DNA from: an uncultured Bacilli bacterium | GTDB taxonomy: Bacteria; Bacillota_I; Bacilli_A; RF39; UBA660 | Assembly: GCA_944358325.1 (NCBI GenBank) | Contig: CALVQV010000020.1 | Span: forward strand, 1-16,704 | Direction: 5' to 3' | DNA: 16,704 nucleotides | In this document: in pieces, positions 1 to 4,844 of the stretch | Layout of the letters: each line of letters opens with the position of its first letter | Position numbering within the stretch: position 1 is the stretch's first letter | The notes under the pieces: generated by a model | Told to the model about the DNA's origin: nothing | Databases searched by the model: none | The model's input: only the letters and a program-made list of their open reading frames with translations | Made by a program: the position numbers and the translations under genes

Positions 1-61
1 TATGATATAATTGTTATAGAATAATTAAAATATAGAATATGATAAAATGAATTTACACAGT

Positions 62-110
62 TAAATTTACAGGGTCACACAGTAAATTTACAGGGTCTTA
101 CAGGGTCTTA
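62..110 (+). repeat. Direct-repeat array in the target-gene promoter. The 15-mer TAAATTTACAGGGTC occurs twice (62-76, 83-97; 21-bp period) and the 10-mer CAGGGTCTTA occurs twice in tandem (91-100, 101-110). Core unit is TTACAGGGTC.
   Basis: Exact repeats read directly from the sequence. A degenerate copy, AATTTACACAG, lies at 50-60. The array overlaps the predicted -35 and spacer. Confidence 0.8.
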
Positions 111-116
111 TATAAT
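87..116 (+). promoter_or_regulatory. Putative sigma-A-type promoter of the DGR target gene
   Basis: -35 TTTACA (87-92), 18-bp spacer, perfect -10 TATAAT (111-116). RBS AGGAG at 128-132 lies 7 nt before the ATG at 140. Confidence 0.45.
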
Positions 117-139
117 TTAGATAGAATAGGAGAGAAAAA

Positions 140-1819
140 ATGAAAGAAAAAGGATTCACGCTTATAGAATTACTAGCAGTCATCGTTATATTAGCAGTAA
201 TAGCTTTAATCGCAACACCACTAATTATGGGCGTTATTGATGAAGCCAAAGACGGAGCTAATAAAAGAAGTGTCCAAAGTATAAGAGATGGAGCAGAAAC
301 ATTTTTATTATCTAAAAAAACTTTAGATAGTAATTATACTTTCAATATGAATGATTATCAATTCAAAGGAAATCAATTTGGTAAAGGAACATCTGATGAA
401 AGAATTAATATTGTTTTTAATGATAAAGATGAAGCCAGTGTCGCAGTATATGAAAATAATAAATGTTATTATATCTTAGCAGGATCAAATGAAGTAAAAA
501 GTGAAACAGGCTTAGATAAACAACAATGTTTAGAAAAAGCAGGAGCAACTGAAATAGTAGAAGGAAATCCTCTACTACCACAAATAGAAGCTAACTTATG
601 TACAAGTGAAAAAACAACCGAATGTTATAAAACAGAAGGTAATGAATATATCTATACAGGAGCATATGGAACAGGTGGAGTAAACTGGTTATGGTATGGA
701 GGGCATCAATGGCGTATTATCAAAGTAGATAAAACAACTGGAAGATATACTTTAATTACATCATATCCTGCAACAGCAATTCAATGGCAAAGTAGTATAG
801 CAAATGGGCCATCATTAGAAGAGTCATATGTAGGAAATTGGTTAAATAATGTGTTTGTTGCATCATTACCAACTAATGTTCAATCAAAATTAGAAAATAT
901 GACATATACAAGAAAAGTATATGATGGAAGTAGTGTTGTAGAAGAAGAAATAAGTAATGTTAAAGTTAGACTTCTAACAGAAAATGAATATACAACTTAT
1001 GGCGGAGCAGATAGTTATTTAGATATAAAGGATTGGTGGTGGCTAGCAGATATATATACTTCGTCTCGCGTCCGTAGTGTGAACGACGGCGGCAATTTGA
1101 GCAGCGACAGGCCGTCGAGCGCGAATGGTGTGCGCGCCATTGTGGAAATATCTGATATCACCATCACAGAAGGTGATGGTACTCTTAGCGCGCCATATAT
1201 TGGAAACACAAGTAAAGCTACAAACTTATCAGATATTGCAGTCGGAGAATATATAAGTATTCCTAAAAGTGATGGTGGAACTTATTTAGCCCGTGTTGTT
1301 AAACGTGATCAAAATGGTACAAAAGTTATTCTAAATGGTTTATATAATACAAGTGCTTTTGGAAGTAATGCAACATTTTCAACAAGTAGTACAATTTATA
1401 CAGGAGCTTTAATAGGATTTAAAAATAGTTTAGATAGTAATTATTTTGATGGTACTAATCGTAATTTCAATATGACAACGTATGGAGATGGAGCAAATTA
1501 TGCAGATACAACAACTATGTTTACTGGCAATATCGGACTACCTAGCGTAGGGGAGATGTTTAGTGGAAATGATATAGATGTAACAACTAGTTCTAAAACA
1601 TTTGTAGATACAAGTAAAATATTAAATCCGACATTAAGTTCTTATTATTGGTTAATGAATGCCTATAGTTCGTCTAGCGTCCGTAATGTGAACAACTACG
1701 GCTACTTGAACAACAGCAGTCCGTCGTACACGGGTGGTGTGCGCGCCACTTGGTATATCTCTGATATCACCATTACCGGAGGTAATGGTACTCCTAGCGC
1801 CCCATATACCTTAAAATAG
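140..1819 (+). CDS. DGR target (variable) protein with a type IV pilin-like N-terminus and two tandem VR-bearing ligand-binding-type modules
   Basis: 559-aa ORF. The N-terminus MKEKG/FTLIELLAVIVILAVIALIA matches the prepilin cleavage/methylation motif (Gly-1, Phe+1, Glu+5, hydrophobic helix). Two paralogous modules (about aa 165-355 and 365-559) both end in WW(L)..SS.VR.VN..G.L....PS...GVRA...ISDITIT.G.GT.SAPY. VR1 covers aa 308-334 and VR2 covers aa 511-537. Confidence 0.9.
   Translation: MKEKGFTLIELLAVIVILAVIALIATPLIMGVIDEAKDGANKRSVQSIRDGAETFLLSKKTLDSNYTFNMNDYQFKGNQFGKGTSDERINIVFNDKDEASVAVYENNKCYYILAGSNEVKSETGLDKQQCLEKAGATEIVEGNPLLPQIEANLCTSEKTTECYKTEGNEYIYTGAYGTGGVNWLWYGGHQWRIIKVDKTTGRYTLITSYPATAIQWQSSIANGPSLEESYVGNWLNNVFVASLPTNVQSKLENMTYTRKVYDGSSVVEEEISNVKVRLLTENEYTTYGGADSYLDIKDWWWLADIYTSSRVRSVNDGGNLSSDRPSSANGVRAIVEISDITITEGDGTLSAPYIGNTSKATNLSDIAVGEYISIPKSDGGTYLARVVKRDQNGTKVILNGLYNTSAFGSNATFSTSSTIYTGALIGFKNSLDSNYFDGTNRNFNMTTYGDGANYADTTTMFTGNIGLPSVGEMFSGNDIDVTTSSKTFVDTSKILNPTLSSYYWLMNAYSSSSVRNVNNYGYLNNSSPSYTGGVRATWYISDITITGGNGTPSAPYTLK
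1062..1139 (+). repeat. DGR variable repeat 1 (VR1)
   Basis: 78-nt ungapped alignment to TR 1851-1928 with 13 mismatches. Eleven are at TR adenines (10 A->G, 1 A->C). Two are at non-adenines (TR c1885 vs t1096; TR t1900 vs g1111). It forms a GC-rich island in an AT-rich gene. Confidence 0.85.
1160..1180 (+). promoter_or_regulatory. Hairpin 20 nt downstream of VR1, a candidate DGR target-recognition (IMH-associated) stem-loop
   Basis: ACCATCAC (1160-1167) pairs with GTGATGGT (1173-1180) as an 8-bp perfect stem with loop AGAAG. The position is equivalent to the hairpin after VR2. Confidence 0.6.
1671..1748 (+). repeat. DGR variable repeat 2 (VR2)
   Basis: 78-nt ungapped alignment to TR, offset exactly 180 nt. 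There are 7 mismatches, all at TR adenines (TR 1857, 1877, 1883, 1896, 1907, 1913, 1914; 4 A->G, 3 A->T). Confidence 0.92.
1769..1789 (+). promoter_or_regulatory. Hairpin 20 nt downstream of VR2, a candidate DGR target-recognition stem-loop
   Basis: ACCATTACC (1769-1777) pairs with GGTAATGGT (1781-1789) as a 9-bp stem with loop GGA. Relative to the VR1 hairpin, a C:G pair is replaced by T:A through compensatory changes on both arms. Confidence 0.6.
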
Positions 1820-1850
1820 AGTAAGTATTGTAGGTGTAAGAACAAAAAAG

Positions 1851-1928
1851 CGTCTAACGTCCGTAATGTGAACAACAACGGCAACTTGAACAACAACAGT
1901 CCGTCGAACACGAATGGTGTGCGCGCCA
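1851..1928 (+). repeat. DGR template repeat (TR)
   Basis: Non-coding copy of the VRs, 31 nt after the target stop codon. It has 25 adenines in 78 nt, mostly as AAC/AAT codons in the VR reading frame (S N V R N V N N N G N L N N N S P S N T N G V R A). It ends in the GC-rich GGTGTGCGCGCC shared with both VRs. The 5' edge could extend to about 1841. Confidence 0.9.
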
Positions 1929-2101
1929 GAGCTCCTTGAAACTTAGAGTATATGAGTATTTTGTATATGTGAAGCCATGGAACAGTTCTTATTCCTGGGA
2001 ATATCCTAAAATTACATAAGTTTAATTAAGTTTTGGTAAGTGATGAAGAAGATTAATTAGTAATTCTTATGGGAAAACAGAAGAAATTTTTTCTTCTGTT
2101 T
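1851..2101 (+). ncRNA. Putative DGR RNA (TR plus a downstream spacer of about 145 nt), possibly the 3' UTR of the target mRNA
   Basis: No terminator lies between the target stop (1819) and the TR. The first intrinsic terminator is at 2075-2109. No credible ORF lies in 1929-2074. The 5' end of the RNA cannot be determined from sequence. Confidence 0.4.
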
Positions 2102-2109
2102 TTTAATTT
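2075..2109 (+). terminator. Rho-independent terminator after the TR and spacer
   Basis: AAACAGAAGAAA (2075-2086) pairs with TTTCTTCTGTTT (2090-2101). The core CAGAAGAA/TTCTTCTG stem is followed by a T-rich tract TTTTTAATTTT. Confidence 0.75.
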
Positions 2110-2156
2110 TTAGTATTTTTTTATGATAATTATGATGTTTTATGTTGACATTTTGC

Positions 2157-2183
2157 TTGACACGTGTGTGTGTGTGTTATTAT
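2157..2183 (+). promoter_or_regulatory. Putative promoter of the msl-avd-RT operon
   Basis: Perfect -35 TTGACA (2157-2162) and TG-extended -10 TGtTATTAT (2175-2183). The spacer is 15 bp and consists almost entirely of (GT)7. A second TTGACA lies at 2145-2150. Confidence 0.45.
2164..2177. repeat. (GT)7 dinucleotide microsatellite
   Basis: GTGTGTGTGTGTGT read directly from the sequence. It lies between the -35 and -10 elements upstream of msl. Confidence 0.95.
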
Positions 2184-2198
2184 TTGTTTGGTGATTAT

Positions 2199-2600
2199 AT
2201 GTTATATAAGGTATGGGAATGTTTGAAAGTAAGACATAGTTTTTTTGTTATTTTTATGAAGTATGGTAATTTTTATAAGGTTTATGGTGATGATGTTTTT
2301 ATTGTGTGGAAGATTACGGGGTATCGTGTTATTAATGGTGATCATATTGGTTTTCCTCTTAAGTCTTTAAATGTTGTTTTAAAAAGGTTAGAACTTTTAC
2401 ATGTTAGTTATATTGTTTATGATGGATGTGATGATTATTTGATGGTTGATGATGTTAATAATTGTTACATTAATGTTTTAAGTGAGTTTAAAGATTTATA
2501 TTTAAATGAAGATAGAATTAAAAAGATTGTGGAAAAGTTTGAATTTAAGGTTAGAGAGGATAAGGAAATGCTAGATTATTATGAAGAGTTATGGAAGTGA
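2199..2600 (+). CDS. MutS mismatch-binding domain I-like small protein (MSL-type DGR accessory protein)
   Basis: The ORF track gives 2142..2600. I prefer the ATG at 2199 (RBS GGTGA 2190-2194) because the upstream 19 codons overlap the promoter and GT tract. [33 protein letters not shown] aligns with the E. coli MutS N-terminus [59 protein letters not shown] aligns with [28 protein letters not shown]. The ORF overlaps avd by 20 nt. Confidence 0.7.
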   Translation: [133 protein letters not shown]

Positions 2601-2937
2601 TTTTGTTGTTATTAGGGAGTTTAAGAGTTTTATTTGTGTTGTTGAGGGTGAGTTTGATAATTGTCCTAAAAAGTGTTTATATTTAAAAGATAGTTTATTT
2701 GATATGTGTTATATGGTTTTAGAGGATATTTATGTGTGTAATATGGGGAATAATCGTTTGGTTTATATTAATCGTGTTATTGCTAGGTTAAGGATTATTG
2801 ATTTTATGCTTAAAAGATGTGTAGATATGGGGATTATTAGTTATAAACGTTTTTTATTTTTAGGAAATAAGTTAAATAGTGTAGTGAGAATGTGTTATGG
2901 GTGGTTAAAAAGTGAAAAGAGTAAACTTGAGGTATGA
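2581..2937 (+). CDS. avd: Avd-like accessory variability determinant (four-helix-bundle, 23S rRNA-IVS protein family)
   Basis: 118 aa, located directly upstream of the DGR RT and overlapping it by 26 nt. The helical pattern with a ..F..CPKK.. segment after helix 1 and a C-terminal MCYGWLKS matches the typical Avd layout (fPk.ek ... ml.gw.ks). The call rests on size, position and motifs only. Confidence 0.7.
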   Translation: MKSYGSDFVVIREFKSFICVVEGEFDNCPKKCLYLKDSLFDMCYMVLEDIYVCNMGNNRLVYINRVIARLRIIDFMLKRCVDMGIISYKRFLFLGNKLNSVVRMCYGWLKSEKSKLEV

Positions 2938-3883
2938 TGATGTTTTAAGTTATGAGAATCTTGAATTTATTTATTATATGCTTAGAAAAGGTGTTAAAAA
3001 TAAAGAAAAGTTAGATAAATTTGATTTATATTATAGTTCTAATATAAGTCATATTTATAGTTTGTTAAAAGAAAGAAGATATGAAGTTGGTTCTTATCAT
3101 CTTTTTTATATTTATGAACCAAAGAAAAGGCTTATTATGAGTCAGGGGATTGGTGATAAGATTGTTAATCATTTTGTTGCTTATTTCTATTTAATTCCTC
3201 TTCTTGACCCCTGTTTAATTAATAGTAATGTGGCAGTTAGGAAGAATATGGGAACTAGTTATGGTATTAAGTTATTAAAGAAATATTTTAGTAGTTTTAA
3301 AGGTGATTTTTATATTTTGAAGTGTGATATTAAGGGGTATTTTTATAATATTAATCATGATATTTTAAAAGTGTTGGTTGCAAGAAAGATTAAAGATAAA
3401 GATATTCTTAATTTAGTGTTTAAGATTATAGATAGTGTTGATAGTTATGGTATTGGAGGACTACCTATTGGTAATATGACTAGTCAGATTTTAGGTATAT
3501 ATTATTTAAATGGTTTAGACCACTATATTAAAGAAGTTTTAGGTATTAGGTGTTATATTAGGTATATGGATGATTTTATTCTTCTAGCTCGTGATAAATG
3601 TTATTTGAAAGAGTGTTTAAATAAGATTAAAGCGTATATTAGTGGATTAGGTTTAGAATTAAATTCTAAGACAATGATTAGTAGTAGTAAAAGTGGTGTT
3701 AATTTTTTGGGTTATCATTTTAGTTATGATAAGCATGTAGTTATTAAACCACATAATTATAATAAAAGAAAAATTAAACGAAAAATGAGGTTATATAAAG
3801 AAGGAAAGATAAGTTATAATAGGATTATTTGTTATAAAGGTTATTTTAGTTATTGTTCCCAAAGTAAGACATTTATAGTATAA
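2912..3883 (+). CDS. DGR-type reverse transcriptase
   Basis: 323 aa with a GTG start at 2912 and RBS GGTGG at 2900-2904. RT motifs present: EPKKRLIM, GDKIVNHF, YILKCDIKGYFYNI, LPIGNMTSQ (the DGR-specific IGxxxSQ signature), and RYMDDFILLA (YMDD catalytic box). No maturase, endonuclease or integrase extension. Confidence 0.92.
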   Translation: MKRVNLRYDDVLSYENLEFIYYMLRKGVKNKEKLDKFDLYYSSNISHIYSLLKERRYEVGSYHLFYIYEPKKRLIMSQGIGDKIVNHFVAYFYLIPLLDPCLINSNVAVRKNMGTSYGIKLLKKYFSSFKGDFYILKCDIKGYFYNINHDILKVLVARKIKDKDILNLVFKIIDSVDSYGIGGLPIGNMTSQILGIYYLNGLDHYIKEVLGIRCYIRYMDDFILLARDKCYLKECLNKIKAYISGLGLELNSKTMISSSKSGVNFLGYHFSYDKHVVIKPHNYNKRKIKRKMRLYKEGKISYNRIICYKGYFSYCSQSKTFIV

Positions 3884-3899
3884 TATTAGTGGTGATATT

Positions 3900-4844
3900 A
3901 TGAAAAAAAGAGTGGTTGTTTTAGGTGGTGGGACAGGAATGTCTACTTTATTACGTGGCTTAAAACAATTTCCTATTGATATAACAGCTGTTGTTAGTGT
4001 TTGTGATGATGGAAGAAGTACTGGAAGGTTAAGAGAGGAATTTAATATTCCAGCTGTTGGCGATATTCGTCAAGTTTTAGTAGCACTATCAGAAGTAGAA
4101 CCATTAGTAGAAAATCTTTTAAATTATCGTTTTAAGACGACTAGTGATTTAAATGGTCATACGGTTGGTAATTTACTTTTAACAGCTTTAAAAAATATTA
4201 ATGGAACGATGTCTGATGGGATTGAGTCTTTAGGTAAGATTCTTAATTTAAAAGGTAAAGTTTTACCATTAACAGAGGATAATGTTACTTTAGTAGGTTT
4301 AATGGAAGATGGTAGTAAAATAGAAGGTGAACACAATATTACAGAATCAGATTTAAGAGTTATGGAAGTTAGTTATAAAGATGCACCTATTGTTAATAAA
4401 GAGGTTATTAAAGAAATAAAGCGTGCGGATTTAATTATTTTAAGTATGGGTAGTTTATATACAAGTATTATGCCTAATTTAGTAGTTCCTGAAGTTGTTG
4501 AAGCGATTGAAAATAGTAAGGCTAAAATTATGTATGTTTGTAATATGATGACTCAACCAGGTGAAACTGATGAATATCGTGTTAGTGATCATATTAAAGC
4601 TTTAAATAAGCATTTAGGTAAACGTAGTATTGATATTGTTTTAGTTAATGATGGTGAAATACATCCAGAATTAATTAAAAGATATGCAACTTTAGAACAA
4701 AAAGATCCTGTTTTTTATGATATTGAAGAAGTTAATAAATTAGGAGTTAGAGTTATTGAAGATGATTTTGTTATTTTAGATAGAGAAATGATTCGTCATA
4801 ATTCAATGAAATTAGCTTTTCATATTTTTTCAAATTTAATGTAG
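3900..4844 (+). CDS. yvcK: Gluconeogenesis factor YvcK/GlmR family protein (UPF0052, CofD-like)
   Basis: N-terminal VVVLGGGTGMSTLLRGLK motif. 314 aa. Lies immediately upstream of whiA, as in other Firmicutes. Confidence 0.9.
   Translation: MKKRVVVLGGGTGMSTLLRGLKQFPIDITAVVSVCDDGRSTGRLREEFNIPAVGDIRQVLVALSEVEPLVENLLNYRFKTTSDLNGHTVGNLLLTALKNINGTMSDGIESLGKILNLKGKVLPLTEDNVTLVGLMEDGSKIEGEHNITESDLRVMEVSYKDAPIVNKEVIKEIKRADLIILSMGSLYTSIMPNLVVPEVVEAIENSKAKIMYVCNMMTQPGETDEYRVSDHIKALNKHLGKRSIDIVLVNDGEIHPELIKRYATLEQKDPVFYDIEEVNKLGVRVIEDDFVILDREMIRHNSMKLAFHIFSNLM

Follow-up and report, generated by a model that had tools for sequence, protein, structure and literature searches.

The diversity-generating retroelement (DGR) of the Bordetella phage BPP-1, with the gene order mtd-avd-TR-brt, transfers sequence adenine-specifically from a template repeat (TR) to a single variable repeat (VR), located at the C-terminal end of a tail-fibre protein of the phage (Guo et al., 2011; PMC3240598). 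Another class, 'Architecture D', combines a MutS-like protein (MSL) of 112-283 aa with avd and lacks HRDC (Wu et al., 2018; PMC5758913); close to it stand the DGR of Legionella pneumophila (target LdtA) and the variable regions of category 'd' (DUF1566/CLec2) of the same study. Several VRs can occur in the same ORF. This arrangement has been reported for 31 DGRs (Yan et al., 2019; PMC6642488), for an ORF of Marichromatium purpuratum with three VRs, in a study in which the VRs of one DGR differed in substitution pattern (Schillinger et al., 2012; PMC3521204), and for four genes with two VRs, in a survey where the 'G-type pilin' domain was rare among DGR targets (PMC11661182). Substitutions at positions other than TR adenines (non-A) are also known and were found in 44.6% of VRs, with a mean of 1.47%, in published surveys (PMC6642488).

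The locus analysed here is chromosomal and belongs to an AT-rich uncultured Bacilli bacterium (genome about 28% G+C). Within the whole stretch of DNA that was analysed, 16,704 nt long and hereafter called the window, its parts follow one another in the order target, TR, terminator, MSL, Avd and reverse transcriptase (RT). It is probably a chromosomal DGR of the MSL-Avd-RT type in which two VRs are both served, by separate and episodic homing. The target gene and the repeats are as follows:

87-116, forward strand: promoter-like site preceding the target gene (TTTACA, 18 nt, TATAAT; 11/12 matches in a consensus scan), putative in function
140-1819, forward strand: DGR target gene (559 aa), with a type-IV-pilin-like N-terminus, a long N-terminal helix and two DUF6273/Lcl-C-terminal-like modules, each ending in a VR
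1062-1139, forward strand: VR1, the internal variable repeat closing the first lectin-like module (ungapped comparison with the TR)
1671-1748, forward strand: VR2, the C-terminal variable repeat (ungapped comparison with the TR)
1851-1928, forward strand: TR, non-coding and AAC-rich, with flanks conserved in relatives (ungapped comparison)

The TR (78 nt: 25 A, 22 C, 18 G, 13 T) differs from VR1 at 13 positions in an ungapped comparison, 11 of them at TR adenines. Ten are A>G (1068, 1077, 1085, 1088, 1089, 1101, 1104, 1106, 1119 and 1121) and one is A>C (1067). The two non-A changes are C1885>T1096, which is synonymous (AAC>AAT), and T1900>G1111, which replaces Ser by Arg (AGT>AGG). VR2 shows seven differences and no non-A change, with A>G at 1677, 1716, 1733 and 1734 and A>T at 1697, 1703 and 1727. 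All the counts, bases and positions listed in a first-pass annotation of this DNA were thereby reproduced. Adenines make up 32% of the TR and are the site of 18 of the 20 VR differences (binomial p=1.2e-7), and the bias holds for each VR separately (VR1, p=1.4e-4; VR2, p=3.5e-4). Both VRs lie in frame within the ORF 140-1819, the substitutions fall on the first two bases of AAC/AAT codons, and the GC-rich 3′ block GGTGTGCGCGCCA is the common end of both recipient sites. There are three TR/VR copies and no others in the 16.7-kb window, and the TR adjoins the Avd and RT cassette; the proposal that one TR serves two VRs in one ORF was thus borne out. TR/VR differences at adenines (7/7 in VR2, 11/13 in VR1) together with a nearby RT and Avd are the features by which a DGR is recognised.

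The target protein carries a prepilin cleavage/methylation motif at aa 2-26. Its N-terminus (MKEKGFTLIELLAVIVIL...) scored 30.3 bits against Pfam N_methyl (cut-off 21.2) and 30.2 bits against NCBIfam TIGR02532 (cut-off 16.3), a motif (G-F-T-L-I-E) followed by a hydrophobic helix being the mark of type IV pilin-like proteins, which have a class III signal peptide. This N-terminal motif suggests that the protein may be displayed on a pilus; pilus or competence machinery genes were not found in the window, and some target paralogues in relatives have other N-terminal anchors. The match of the protein to Pfam DUF6273 reached 27.4 bits. An AlphaFold2 model (pLDDT 82) contains a predicted helix at residues 8-62, and its Foldseek matches include 9qa6 (E=1e-7) and, from Legionella, the Lcl C-terminal domain 8q4e of DUF1566 type (prob 0.98, TM 0.50 on target); neither Mtd nor TvpA was matched directly. 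Exact look-ups of the target protein and of the family protein P0002 returned no record. Each VR closes one DUF6273 module, VR1 being internal to the protein and terminal to its own module. As the modules are paralogous and lectin-like, the adenine-encoded residues would form two independently variable binding surfaces. Upstream of the gene, three TACAGGGTC repeats (at 68, 89 and 99) overlap the promoter-like site.

Each VR is followed by an inverted repeat that could form a hairpin or cruciform:

1160-1180, forward strand: hairpin/cruciform-forming inverted repeat of VR1 (ACCATCAC, loop AGAAG, GTGATGGT), 20 nt 3′ of VR1
1769-1789, forward strand: hairpin/cruciform-forming inverted repeat of VR2 (ACCATTACC, loop GGA, GGTAATGGT), 20 nt 3′ of VR2

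DNA folding gave -7.6 kcal/mol (z=-3.0) for the VR1 hairpin and -8.2 kcal/mol (z=-3.2) for the VR2 hairpin. Between the two, a C>T change in the 5′ arm of the VR2 hairpin is offset by a compensatory G>A change in its 3′ arm. The stems covary among 18 VR flanks, in which four of the nine pairs have changed on both sides and 95% of the cells are paired; sliding the partner columns lowers this share to 22-57%. The DNA fold of the TR 3′ flank contained no hairpin. A GC-rich VR 3′ end followed by a hairpin that has no counterpart at the TR is the arrangement of a DGR target site, and the hairpins may act in homing; their absence from the TR fits a one-way transfer from TR to VR. A VR2 with seven non-A mismatches, in the relative L017, was considered as a case of hairpin loss with VR decay, but this was dropped, since its stem pairs when G-T pairs are allowed and its own TR was not recovered.

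Downstream of the TR, the RNA and protein components of the system were identified as follows:

1929-2071, forward strand: TR 3′ flank, conserved in sequence in L012, L014 and L020, presumably the spacer of the DGR RNA, judged by comparison with that of BPP-1
2072-2104, forward strand: intrinsic-terminator-like hairpin and T-run, the end of the presumed target/TR transcript; the sole terminator-like site in 1-4000, also present in the RNA fold
2157-2183, forward strand: promoter-like TTGACA, C(GT)7, TATTAT upstream of MSL-avd-RT, read from the sequence and putative in function
2199-2600, forward strand: MSL, a small MutS-domain-I-like accessory protein (Pfam MutS_I E=3.9e-4, a weak match of 21.1 bits against a cut-off of 20.6)
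2581-2937, forward strand: Avd, the accessory variability determinant (118 aa; NCBIfam DivGenRetAVD E=2.6e-8, Pfam bAvd E=1.2e-3)
2912-3883, forward strand: DGR-type reverse transcriptase (323 aa; Pfam RVT_1 2.6e-16; IGNMTSQ and YMDD motifs read from the translation)

The mechanical ORF of MSL starts at 2142, so that 2142/2199-2600 encodes 133-152 aa. The ATG at 2199 is the likelier start, as it is preceded by GGTGA and agrees with the 133-aa gene call in L012. The Avd matches span the full length of the protein, yet they are weak, lying below curated cut-offs (34 bits against 80 for DivGenRetAVD). No HRDC match was found in the cassette by a Pfam scan, and a small MutS-like protein accompanied by avd, without HRDC, is the combination that distinguishes MSL-containing DGRs, the MutS_I match being weak. 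The best solved-structure match of the RT, nearly full length, is the 328-aa RT of 8ub7-8ube (E=1.7e-26), which we take to be Bordetella bRT, and group II intron and retron RTs rank behind it. A look-up of the RT returned a single 3.2-kb Logan contig (L001) that begins inside the TR and is identical to the window, and is thus uninformative for the VRs. The MSL-avd-RT cassette is extremely C-poor. Rfam had no match anywhere in the window, and the RNA fold of the TR with its flank (1820-2110) was no better than that of shuffled sequences (z=-1.2); given this fold, a structured DGR RNA beyond the terminator is not claimed. In the same fold, 1832-1843 is predicted to pair with 1984-1995, a pairing for which the four TR loci are too similar to be informative.

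These components suggest a mechanism in which an RNA containing the 78-nt TR and the 3′ spacer would be reverse-transcribed by an RT-Avd complex, with misincorporation opposite adenines, and the cDNA would then replace either of the two homologous recipient sites within the target gene. The opposite reading is that of a non-working retroelement, that is, a domain duplication accompanied by a non-coding relic copy, the adenine bias being a fossil. It would agree with the finding that a contig from another sample (L018), with one base difference in 11.8 kb located outside the VRs, carries VR1 and VR2 identical to those of the window, and with the many proteins of the wider family that have near-identical scaffolds and identical VRs. 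Relic loci also exist in relatives, where L005 contains a TR-like relic without RT and L014 an intact TR beside a target whose VRs carry indels. Nevertheless, none of the three cassette ORFs (RT, Avd and MSL) is broken, the catalytic YMDD is present, VR2 has zero non-A differences, both hairpins are intact, and different lineages have kept the TR and its flanks, all of which makes a dead element scarcely credible.

If homing at VR1 and VR2 occurs as separate, episodic events, the number and spectrum of their substitutions should differ at any moment. The first-pass annotation had read the difference another way, with VR1 decaying or rarely refreshed, having gathered point mutations since its last homing, and VR2 as the site in service. 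The two non-A differences of VR1 against none in VR2 are the starting point of this reading, and both were correctly assigned to VR1 rather than to the TR, because the four TR variants obtained, from the window, L012, L014 and L020, all have C35 and T50. The comparison of 2/53 with 0/53 non-A sites is nevertheless far from significant (Fisher p=0.50), and neither the fraction of adenines changed (11/25 in VR1, 7/25 in VR2; p=0.38) nor the A>G share (10/11 against 4/7; p=0.25) separates the VRs. A strong A>G bias in VR1 had been noted as well; beyond the share just given, only a three-category spectrum reached a nominal, uncorrected p=0.043. Against the other 12 VRs the A>G excess of the window VR1 had a nominal p=0.015, also uncorrected, and the pooled VR1 and VR2 spectra did not differ (p=0.68). 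The A>G excess was rejected as a sign of neutral decay on compositional grounds, as a genome of about 28% G+C would be expected to mutate towards A+T.

Relatives provide evidence on both sides. In L020, which of the relatives with a TR of their own is the closest, the opposite is seen, with 11 A-site and no non-A differences in VR1 and six A-site and two non-A differences in VR2; across seven loci, non-A mismatches were more numerous in VR1 in five and less numerous in two (sign test p=0.45). The TR 3′ end contains four synonymous non-A sites (positions 65, 68, 71 and 74), which read T, T, G, C in the TR, VR1 and VR2 of the window and C, C, T, T in the TR, VR1 and VR2 of L020. These shared haplotypes indicate that both VRs were rewritten after a TR change in at least one of the two lineages. 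Rewriting of VR1 would therefore have taken place in the window lineage or in that of L020, not necessarily in the former, the ancestral haplotype being undecided. The VR1 of the window thus carries the 3′-end haplotype of its resident TR, and its hairpin and GC-rich 3′ block are intact. When the window is set against its nearest relatives, whose scaffolds are about 90% identical to its own, 10-14 residues of VR1 and 8-11 of VR2 are different, so that VR1 has diverged to the same extent as VR2. Either site can change alone. Only VR1 differs between the near-identical scaffolds of P0081/P0100 and P0056/P0060, the latter change being confirmed in the DNA of L021/L022, and only VR2 differs between P0053/P0055. 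In clusters of at least 97% scaffold identity, six extra alleles were counted for VR1 and four for VR2, a turnover of VR1 in the wider family at least as high as that of VR2. On the other side, L012 has a VR1 that is not synchronised with the resident TR and that carries a 3-nt indel (an insertion), and VR1 is also the less synchronised, worse-matching site in L016, L019 and L002. Moreover, the members of the pairs P0006/P0008 and P0019/P0020 have the same or almost the same VR1, while their VR2s differ at 13 and 19 residues, respectively. In some relatives, then, VR1 is frozen or decayed.

For the window, the haplotypes, the non-significant tests and the reversal in L020 leave the decay of VR1 unlikely and unequal activity of the two VRs unsupported at the sequence level. 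The non-A changes of VR1 do not prove that it is out of service. They may be point mutations acquired once homing was over, perhaps under selection at the AGT codon of the binding site, or else occasional errors of the RT at bases other than adenine; the published error rates of bRT (PMC7826257) give an upper-bound estimate of about 0.4 non-A errors per homing event. Present-day activity is presumed for the window strain, of which consensus contigs were compared.

The first-pass annotation had also asked whether the two non-A differences are fixed in the VR1 of relatives, and the answer differs between them. T1096 is private to the window among the relatives compared. The AGG codon of G1111, in contrast, recurs in the VR1 of three loci (window, L016 and L019) and, at the protein level, in P0018; it is always read as Asp-Arg-Pro, and the flanking A-sites vary among the four. 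This recurrence would be compatible with decay, as if the codon had escaped overwriting. It would also be expected if VR1 were served, now or at its last homing, by another TR allele with AAT at position 35 and/or AGG at position 50, belonging to a second DGR or to an earlier state of the TR, the non-A differences then recording TR history. The differing A-sites around AGG look as if a template had held the G, and several non-A mismatches of relatives coincide with TR-polymorphic sites (17, 32, 47 and 64-74). On the other hand, G50 or T35 occurs in none of the four TR variants, a single TR is present in the window, and T1096 has the private distribution already mentioned. At the DNA level AGG is absent from all seven VR2 sequences examined, and at the protein level Arg is found at this codon in six VR1s and one VR2 (P0085). 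Service by another TR allele is accordingly very improbable. The recurrent T>G change in three VR1s lacks an explanation here; patchy conversion tracts, perhaps shaped by the MutS-like protein, could let parts of a VR escape overwriting.

The layout with two VRs in one ORF is also present in L012, L016, L017, L019, L020, L002, L021 and L022, and L012, L014 and L020 have almost the same TR as the window. The architecture is conserved in a family with 2188 matches at E<=1e-5, both VR modules being recognisable in every full-length member inspected, and relatives contain several paralogous two-VR genes per genome, with up to six recipient sites. The target ORFs of L020 and L019 are interrupted by perfect tandem duplications of 58 nt and 40 nt, respectively; their reading as pseudogenes was set aside, as the duplications look like scaffold artefacts. 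Scans of JGI metagenomes with a TR 3′-flank pattern and with the family alignment were both without matches.

The (GT)n tract in the promoter-like site of MSL-avd-RT, which separates the -35-like hexamer from the -10-like one, is hypervariable. In the window it comprises seven repeats (2164-2177), which leaves a promoter spacer of 15 nt; otherwise near-identical loci carry seven repeats (L001 and L018), six (L012) or ten (L013). A two-layer system could be imagined, in which slipped-strand mispairing of (GT)n switches MSL-avd-RT on and off while one TR feeds two lectin modules on several pilin-like paralogues, yielding a combinatorial, bet-hedged adhesin repertoire. In such a system, eight GT repeats would give the optimal 17-nt promoter spacing. 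We regard this extension as speculative and rather doubtful; if (GT)n does gate RT expression, it would link simple-repeat phase variation with mutagenic retrohoming.

In conclusion, this is an ordinary DGR, and multiple VRs per TR and ORF, unequal VR patterns and low-level non-A substitutions have all been published before, so that the value of the locus lies mostly in cataloguing. It shows that two DGR recipient sites per protein underlie a large family, for the most part unannotated, from gut-type Bacilli that are uncultured; its members are pilin-like and bear two lectin modules. With a hairpin at each site and either site changing alone, the family offers a natural test bed for the sharing of one template among many recipients.

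Among known systems, the Legionella-type DGR (PMC5758913) resembles the locus in its combination of MSL and avd without HRDC, in a DUF1566/Lcl-like VR domain, to which the Foldseek match with 8q4e points, and in an AAC-rich TR, a likeness that lies in gene content and domain match. The locus differs from it in having a type-IV-pilin-like N-terminus instead of a lipoprotein signal, two VRs per ORF, an AT-rich uncultured Bacilli host and the order target, TR, MSL, avd, RT. With BPP-1 (PMC3240598) it shares adenine-specific TR-to-VR transfer, the Avd and RT pair (8ub7 match), and a VR whose 3′ end is GC-rich and is followed by an inverted repeat inside the range of 4-34 bp that has been published, the stem of which varies but pairs. 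BPP-1 has a single VR, and its GC-rich stems of 7-10 bp carry a GRNA loop of 4 nt; here there are two VRs and AT-rich stems of 8-9 bp with loops of 3-5 nt, located within coding sequence; the gene order also differs, with a terminator between the TR and the accessory genes. As in the described multi-VR DGRs (PMC6642488, PMC3521204, PMC11661182), one TR accompanies at least two VRs in tandem paralogous modules of one ORF. Those cases have FGE-sulfatase-type or other targets and come mostly from Proteobacteria, whereas here the two-VR layout is conserved across a large family. Adhesive pilus subunits offer two further parallels. The Type V pilus adhesins of Bacteroides (bioRxiv 10.1101/2024.11.15.621889) are likewise DGR-diversified, but pilus type and phylum differ, and PilB of Streptococcus sanguinis (PMC8179133), a modular type IV pilin, also bears an adhesive module on a pilus subunit, although it is not a DGR target.

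The 78-nt repeat occurs in exactly three copies in the window, the template repeat (TR) and two variable repeats, VR1 and VR2, both inside the target ORF. Relative to the TR, VR1 has 13 substitutions (10 A>G, 1 A>C and the two non-adenine changes C1885>T1096 and T1900>G1111). VR2 has seven, of which four are A>G and three A>T, so that every one is at an adenine. This base-by-base comparison reproduced all the difference counts of the first-pass annotation and bore out its proposal that one TR serves two VRs in a single gene. Adenines make up 25 of the 78 TR bases and receive 18 of the 20 VR differences (p=1.2e-7). Read in the frame of the ORF 140-1819, the TR is a string of AAC/AAT codons, and the substitutions fall at codon positions 1 and 2. 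The two-VR diversity-generating retroelement (DGR) at this locus is real and belongs to a kind of element already known. The TR is followed on its 3′ side by a flank, a terminator-like hairpin, a small MutS-like accessory gene (MSL), an ORF resembling the accessory variability determinant (Avd) and the reverse transcriptase (RT).

Features of the DGR locus (coordinates on the forward strand of the window)
140-1819: target ORF
1062-1139: VR1
1160-1180: VR1 hairpin, ACCATCAC, loop AGAAG, GTGATGGT; DNA fold -7.6 kcal/mol, z=-3.0
1671-1748: VR2
1769-1789: VR2 hairpin, ACCATTACC, loop GGA, GGTAATGGT; DNA fold -8.2 kcal/mol, z=-3.2
1851-1928: TR
143 nt directly downstream of the TR: TR 3′ flank, conserved
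2072-2104: terminator-like hairpin, the sole such site in the first 4 kb
2199-2600: MSL, small ORF; its match to MutS domain I is weak, though above threshold
2581-2937: avd, matching NCBIfam DivGenRetAVD (2.6e-8) and Pfam bAvd
2912-3883: RT, 323 aa, with IGNMTSQ and YMDD motifs

The first-pass annotation had also proposed that VR1 is rarely refreshed or decaying and that VR2 is the site currently serviced. Within the window, this was supported neither by the non-A differences (2/53 in VR1 and 0/53 in VR2, p=0.50) nor by the proportion of adenines changed (11/25 and 7/25, p=0.38). The A>G excess attributed to VR1 was not significant as a share of A-site changes (10/11 and 4/7, p=0.25), and the three-category spectrum (G, C, T: 10, 1, 0 in VR1; 4, 0, 3 in VR2) reached a nominal p=0.043. 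Error rates of bRT, which are near the detection baseline, are 0.5% at U, 0.3% at C and 1.6% at G (PMC7826257); for the window TR these rates correspond to at most ~0.4 non-A errors per event, so that two RT errors in one event are unlikely yet not negligible (P ~0.07). Non-A substitutions are present in 44.6% of surveyed VRs, with a mean of 1.47% (PMC6642488), and VRs within one DGR may differ widely in substitution pattern (PMC3521204). The asymmetry between VR1 and VR2 in the window is within noise.

Related DNA loci (L-numbers) gave the claim no support either. L018, an 11.8-kb contig from another sample, has a single base difference from the window and is uninformative on relative activity because both of its VRs are the same as in the window. 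L020, with ~91% DNA identity to the window, has its own TR, which differs from that of the window only at positions 65, 68, 71 and 74, and shows the window pattern reversed: 11 A-site and no non-A differences in VR1, six A-site and two non-A differences in VR2. At these four synonymous positions, the TR, VR1 and VR2 all read T,T,G,C in the window and C,C,T,T in L020. This sharing of 3′-end variants implies that the window or the L020 lineage rewrote both VRs after the TR changed, whichever state is ancestral. In L012, VR2 follows its own TR, whereas VR1 does not: 3 nt are inserted in it and its 3′ end is mixed. When TR-bearing loci were pooled with remote TR-less paralogues, whose VRs were scored against the best-fitting TR, the non-A count was higher at VR1 in five loci and at VR2 in two (sign test p=0.45), and the spectra were alike (VR1 43 G, 25 T, 4 C; VR2 36 G, 21 T, 6 C; p=0.68).

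Non-A differences from the TR at seven loci
Window: VR1 2; VR2 0
L020: VR1 0; VR2 2
L012: VR1 many; VR2 2
L019: VR1 3; VR2 2
L016: VR1 3; VR2 1
L017: VR1 2; VR2 7
L002: VR1 2; VR2 0

Related target proteins (P-numbers) were compared as well. A search with the target gave 2188 hits at E<=1e-5; the top 120 comprise a close clade (~25 proteins, with 63-100% identity over all or part of their length) and a large group at ~40% identity. Between the window and its nearest relatives (~90% scaffold identity), 10-14 residues differ in VR1 and 8-11 in VR2. In the close clade, P0006/P0008 have no differences in VR1 and 13 in VR2, and P0019/P0020 have one and 19. In the ~40% group, pairs with near-identical scaffolds had changed in VR1 only (P0081/P0100, 8 vs 0; P0056/P0060, 16 vs 0, the latter confirmed in DNA by L021/L022) or in VR2 only (P0053/P0055, 0 vs 9), and clusters of >=97% scaffold identity held six extra alleles of VR1 and four of VR2. 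Each VR can thus be rewritten alone, and the internal VR1 is a full recipient in the two-VR architecture. Some lineages do show a loss of synchrony, which in the close clade affects VR1 somewhat more often than VR2.

The possibility that the two non-A differences reflect polymorphism of the TR was also addressed. All four TR variants carry C at position 35 and T at position 50; the TR is therefore not the polymorphic partner, and the changes are on the VR1 side. Recurrence in the VR1 of relatives was found for one of them: L019 and L016 share G1111 (AGT>AGG, 1109-1111), as does P0018 at protein level, whereas T1096 is private to the window. The AGG context is constant (GAC AGG CCG, Asp-Arg-Pro). 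AGG at this codon was absent from all seven VR2 DNA sequences examined, and P0085 is the only VR2 protein with Arg there. L020 VR2 and L017 VR1 each have a change at the adjacent G (TR position 49). Together with the recurrence of AGG in VR1, these changes identify the AGT/AGG codon as a hot spot of non-A change. Recurrent selection for Arg is not a neat explanation, since the DGR-accessible CGT codon also gives Arg; shared ancestry with incomplete overwriting is a possible source of the recurrent AGG, as is a TR allele since lost.

VR1 and VR2 share one identical GC-rich 3′ block, and an inverted repeat begins exactly 20 nt past each; no structure was found in the TR 3′ flank folded as DNA. 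Across 18 VR flanks from nine loci, four different stem sequences were found with 95% of cells paired, and both sides had changed in 4/9 pairs. Pairing was only 22-57% when the partner columns were slid. By the hairpin criterion, VR1 and VR2 are equally equipped as recipients.

The loop of the hairpin is exactly flipped (GGA vs TCC) with stems unchanged between L021 and L022 at VR1, as confirmed by direct alignment, and between L004 and L005 at VR2, the pattern expected of a palindrome whose loop flips. In the 20-nt gap between VR1 and its hairpin, G1154A (Asp>Asn) distinguishes L018 (position 1132) from the window, and the A state is also present in L017.

The target is a 559-aa protein with an N-terminal prepilin cleavage/methylation motif (above cut-off for both Pfam N_methyl and TIGR02532) and two DUF6273-like modules, each closed by a VR. 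In its AlphaFold2 model (pLDDT 82), beta-rich modules come after a long N-terminal helix, and Foldseek matched the model to the Legionella Lcl C-terminal domain (prob 0.98) and to a portion of the Thomasclavelia ramosa IgA peptidase (E=1e-7). In every full-length family member inspected, both VR modules can be recognised. The genomes of relatives carry several paralogous two-VR target genes at unrelated loci, without a TR or RT nearby (L002, L016/L017, L019, L021/L022). Some paralogues have non-pilin N-terminal anchors, and P0024 has four modules within 930 aa. In L005, which has no RT, a VR2-type flank comes after a TR-like relic, and in L014 an intact TR adjoins the target P0004, whose two VRs both contain indels. 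The target ORF is split by a perfect 58-nt tandem duplication in L020 (~1200-1260) and by a 40-nt one in L019 (~2440-2480), at the equivalent of window 842-878; these are probably scaffold-joining artefacts rather than real pseudogenes.

The RT has as its nearest solved structure the 328-aa RT of entries 8ub7-8ube (E=1.7e-26). The element is chromosomal, since its neighbours are housekeeping genes (yvcK/cofD, whiA, a DHH protein, L9 and dnaB) and its closest genomic relatives are MAGs labelled uncultured Bacilli. The cassette is poor in C on the coding strand (MSL 3.5%, avd 2.2%, RT 5.5%; neighbouring genes 8-13%; window 1950-3900), with a GC skew as high as 0.89, third positions enriched in G and T, and C at codon position 2 of ~0.02, so that the three proteins contain almost no Thr, Ala or Pro. 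L012 and L014 share this composition.

Just 5′ of MSL-avd-RT, a (GT)7 tract (2164-2177) lies between TTGACA and TATTAT (2157-2183), giving a hexamer spacer of 15 nt; 17 nt would be expected at n=8. The tract has seven units in the window, L001 and L018, six in L012 (2813-2824) and ten in L013 (2813-2832); apart from it, L012 and L013 differ by two SNPs in 2.8 kb and encode an identical target protein. Judged from sequence, repeat slippage may make this a phase-variable promoter of the DGR machinery; in a literature search pairing DGRs with phase variation and simple repeats, none of the papers listed mentioned DGRs. The target promoters of L012, L014, L016, L017, L019, L020 and L010, remote TR-less paralogues included, have in common the motif TTACGTGTGTGTGGGAAATGTTATCTTG, whose (GT)4 does not vary and recalls this tract. 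The region upstream of the window target (1-139) is without TTACGTGTGTGTGGGAAATGTTATCTTG and has instead three TACAGGGTC repeats, at 68, 89 and 99.

The component set, the adenine specificity, the recipient-specific covarying hairpin, the concerted TR/VR variants and, in relatives, the change of one VR without the other are established. By analogy with work on BPP-1 and Legionella, the TR and spacer would be transcribed, possibly via read-through from a target promoter at 87-116, with transcription ending at 2072-2104. RT-Avd, misincorporating at adenines, would then make cDNA, whose integration would be anchored at the VR 3′ end, and the target protein may be displayed on a type IV filament.

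Homing in BPP-1 needs a hairpin/cruciform, and similar structures lie 4-34 bp past VRs in other DGRs (Guo et al., PMC3240598). The window hairpins, at +20 nt, resemble that of BPP-1 (PMC3240598) but differ from it in having AT-rich stems and loops of 3-5 nt and in lying within coding sequence. Co-occurrence of MSL with avd defines a described DGR class, for instance the Legionella element (PMC5758913), which like the window has both accessory genes and whose VRs are of DUF1566 type. Multiple VRs per TR occur in ~29% of non-redundant DGRs, 31 DGRs having several VRs in one ORF (PMC6642488), and an ORF with three VRs was recorded in 2012 (PMC3521204). A 2024 survey counted four genes with two VRs and noted that a G-type pilin domain is rarely the host of a VR (PMC11661182); literature searches pairing DGRs with pilins found no study of type-IV-pilin-like DGR targets. 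The newer points are modest: pilin-like proteins with the two-VR layout make up a large conserved family, and relatives carry several such paralogues in each genome.
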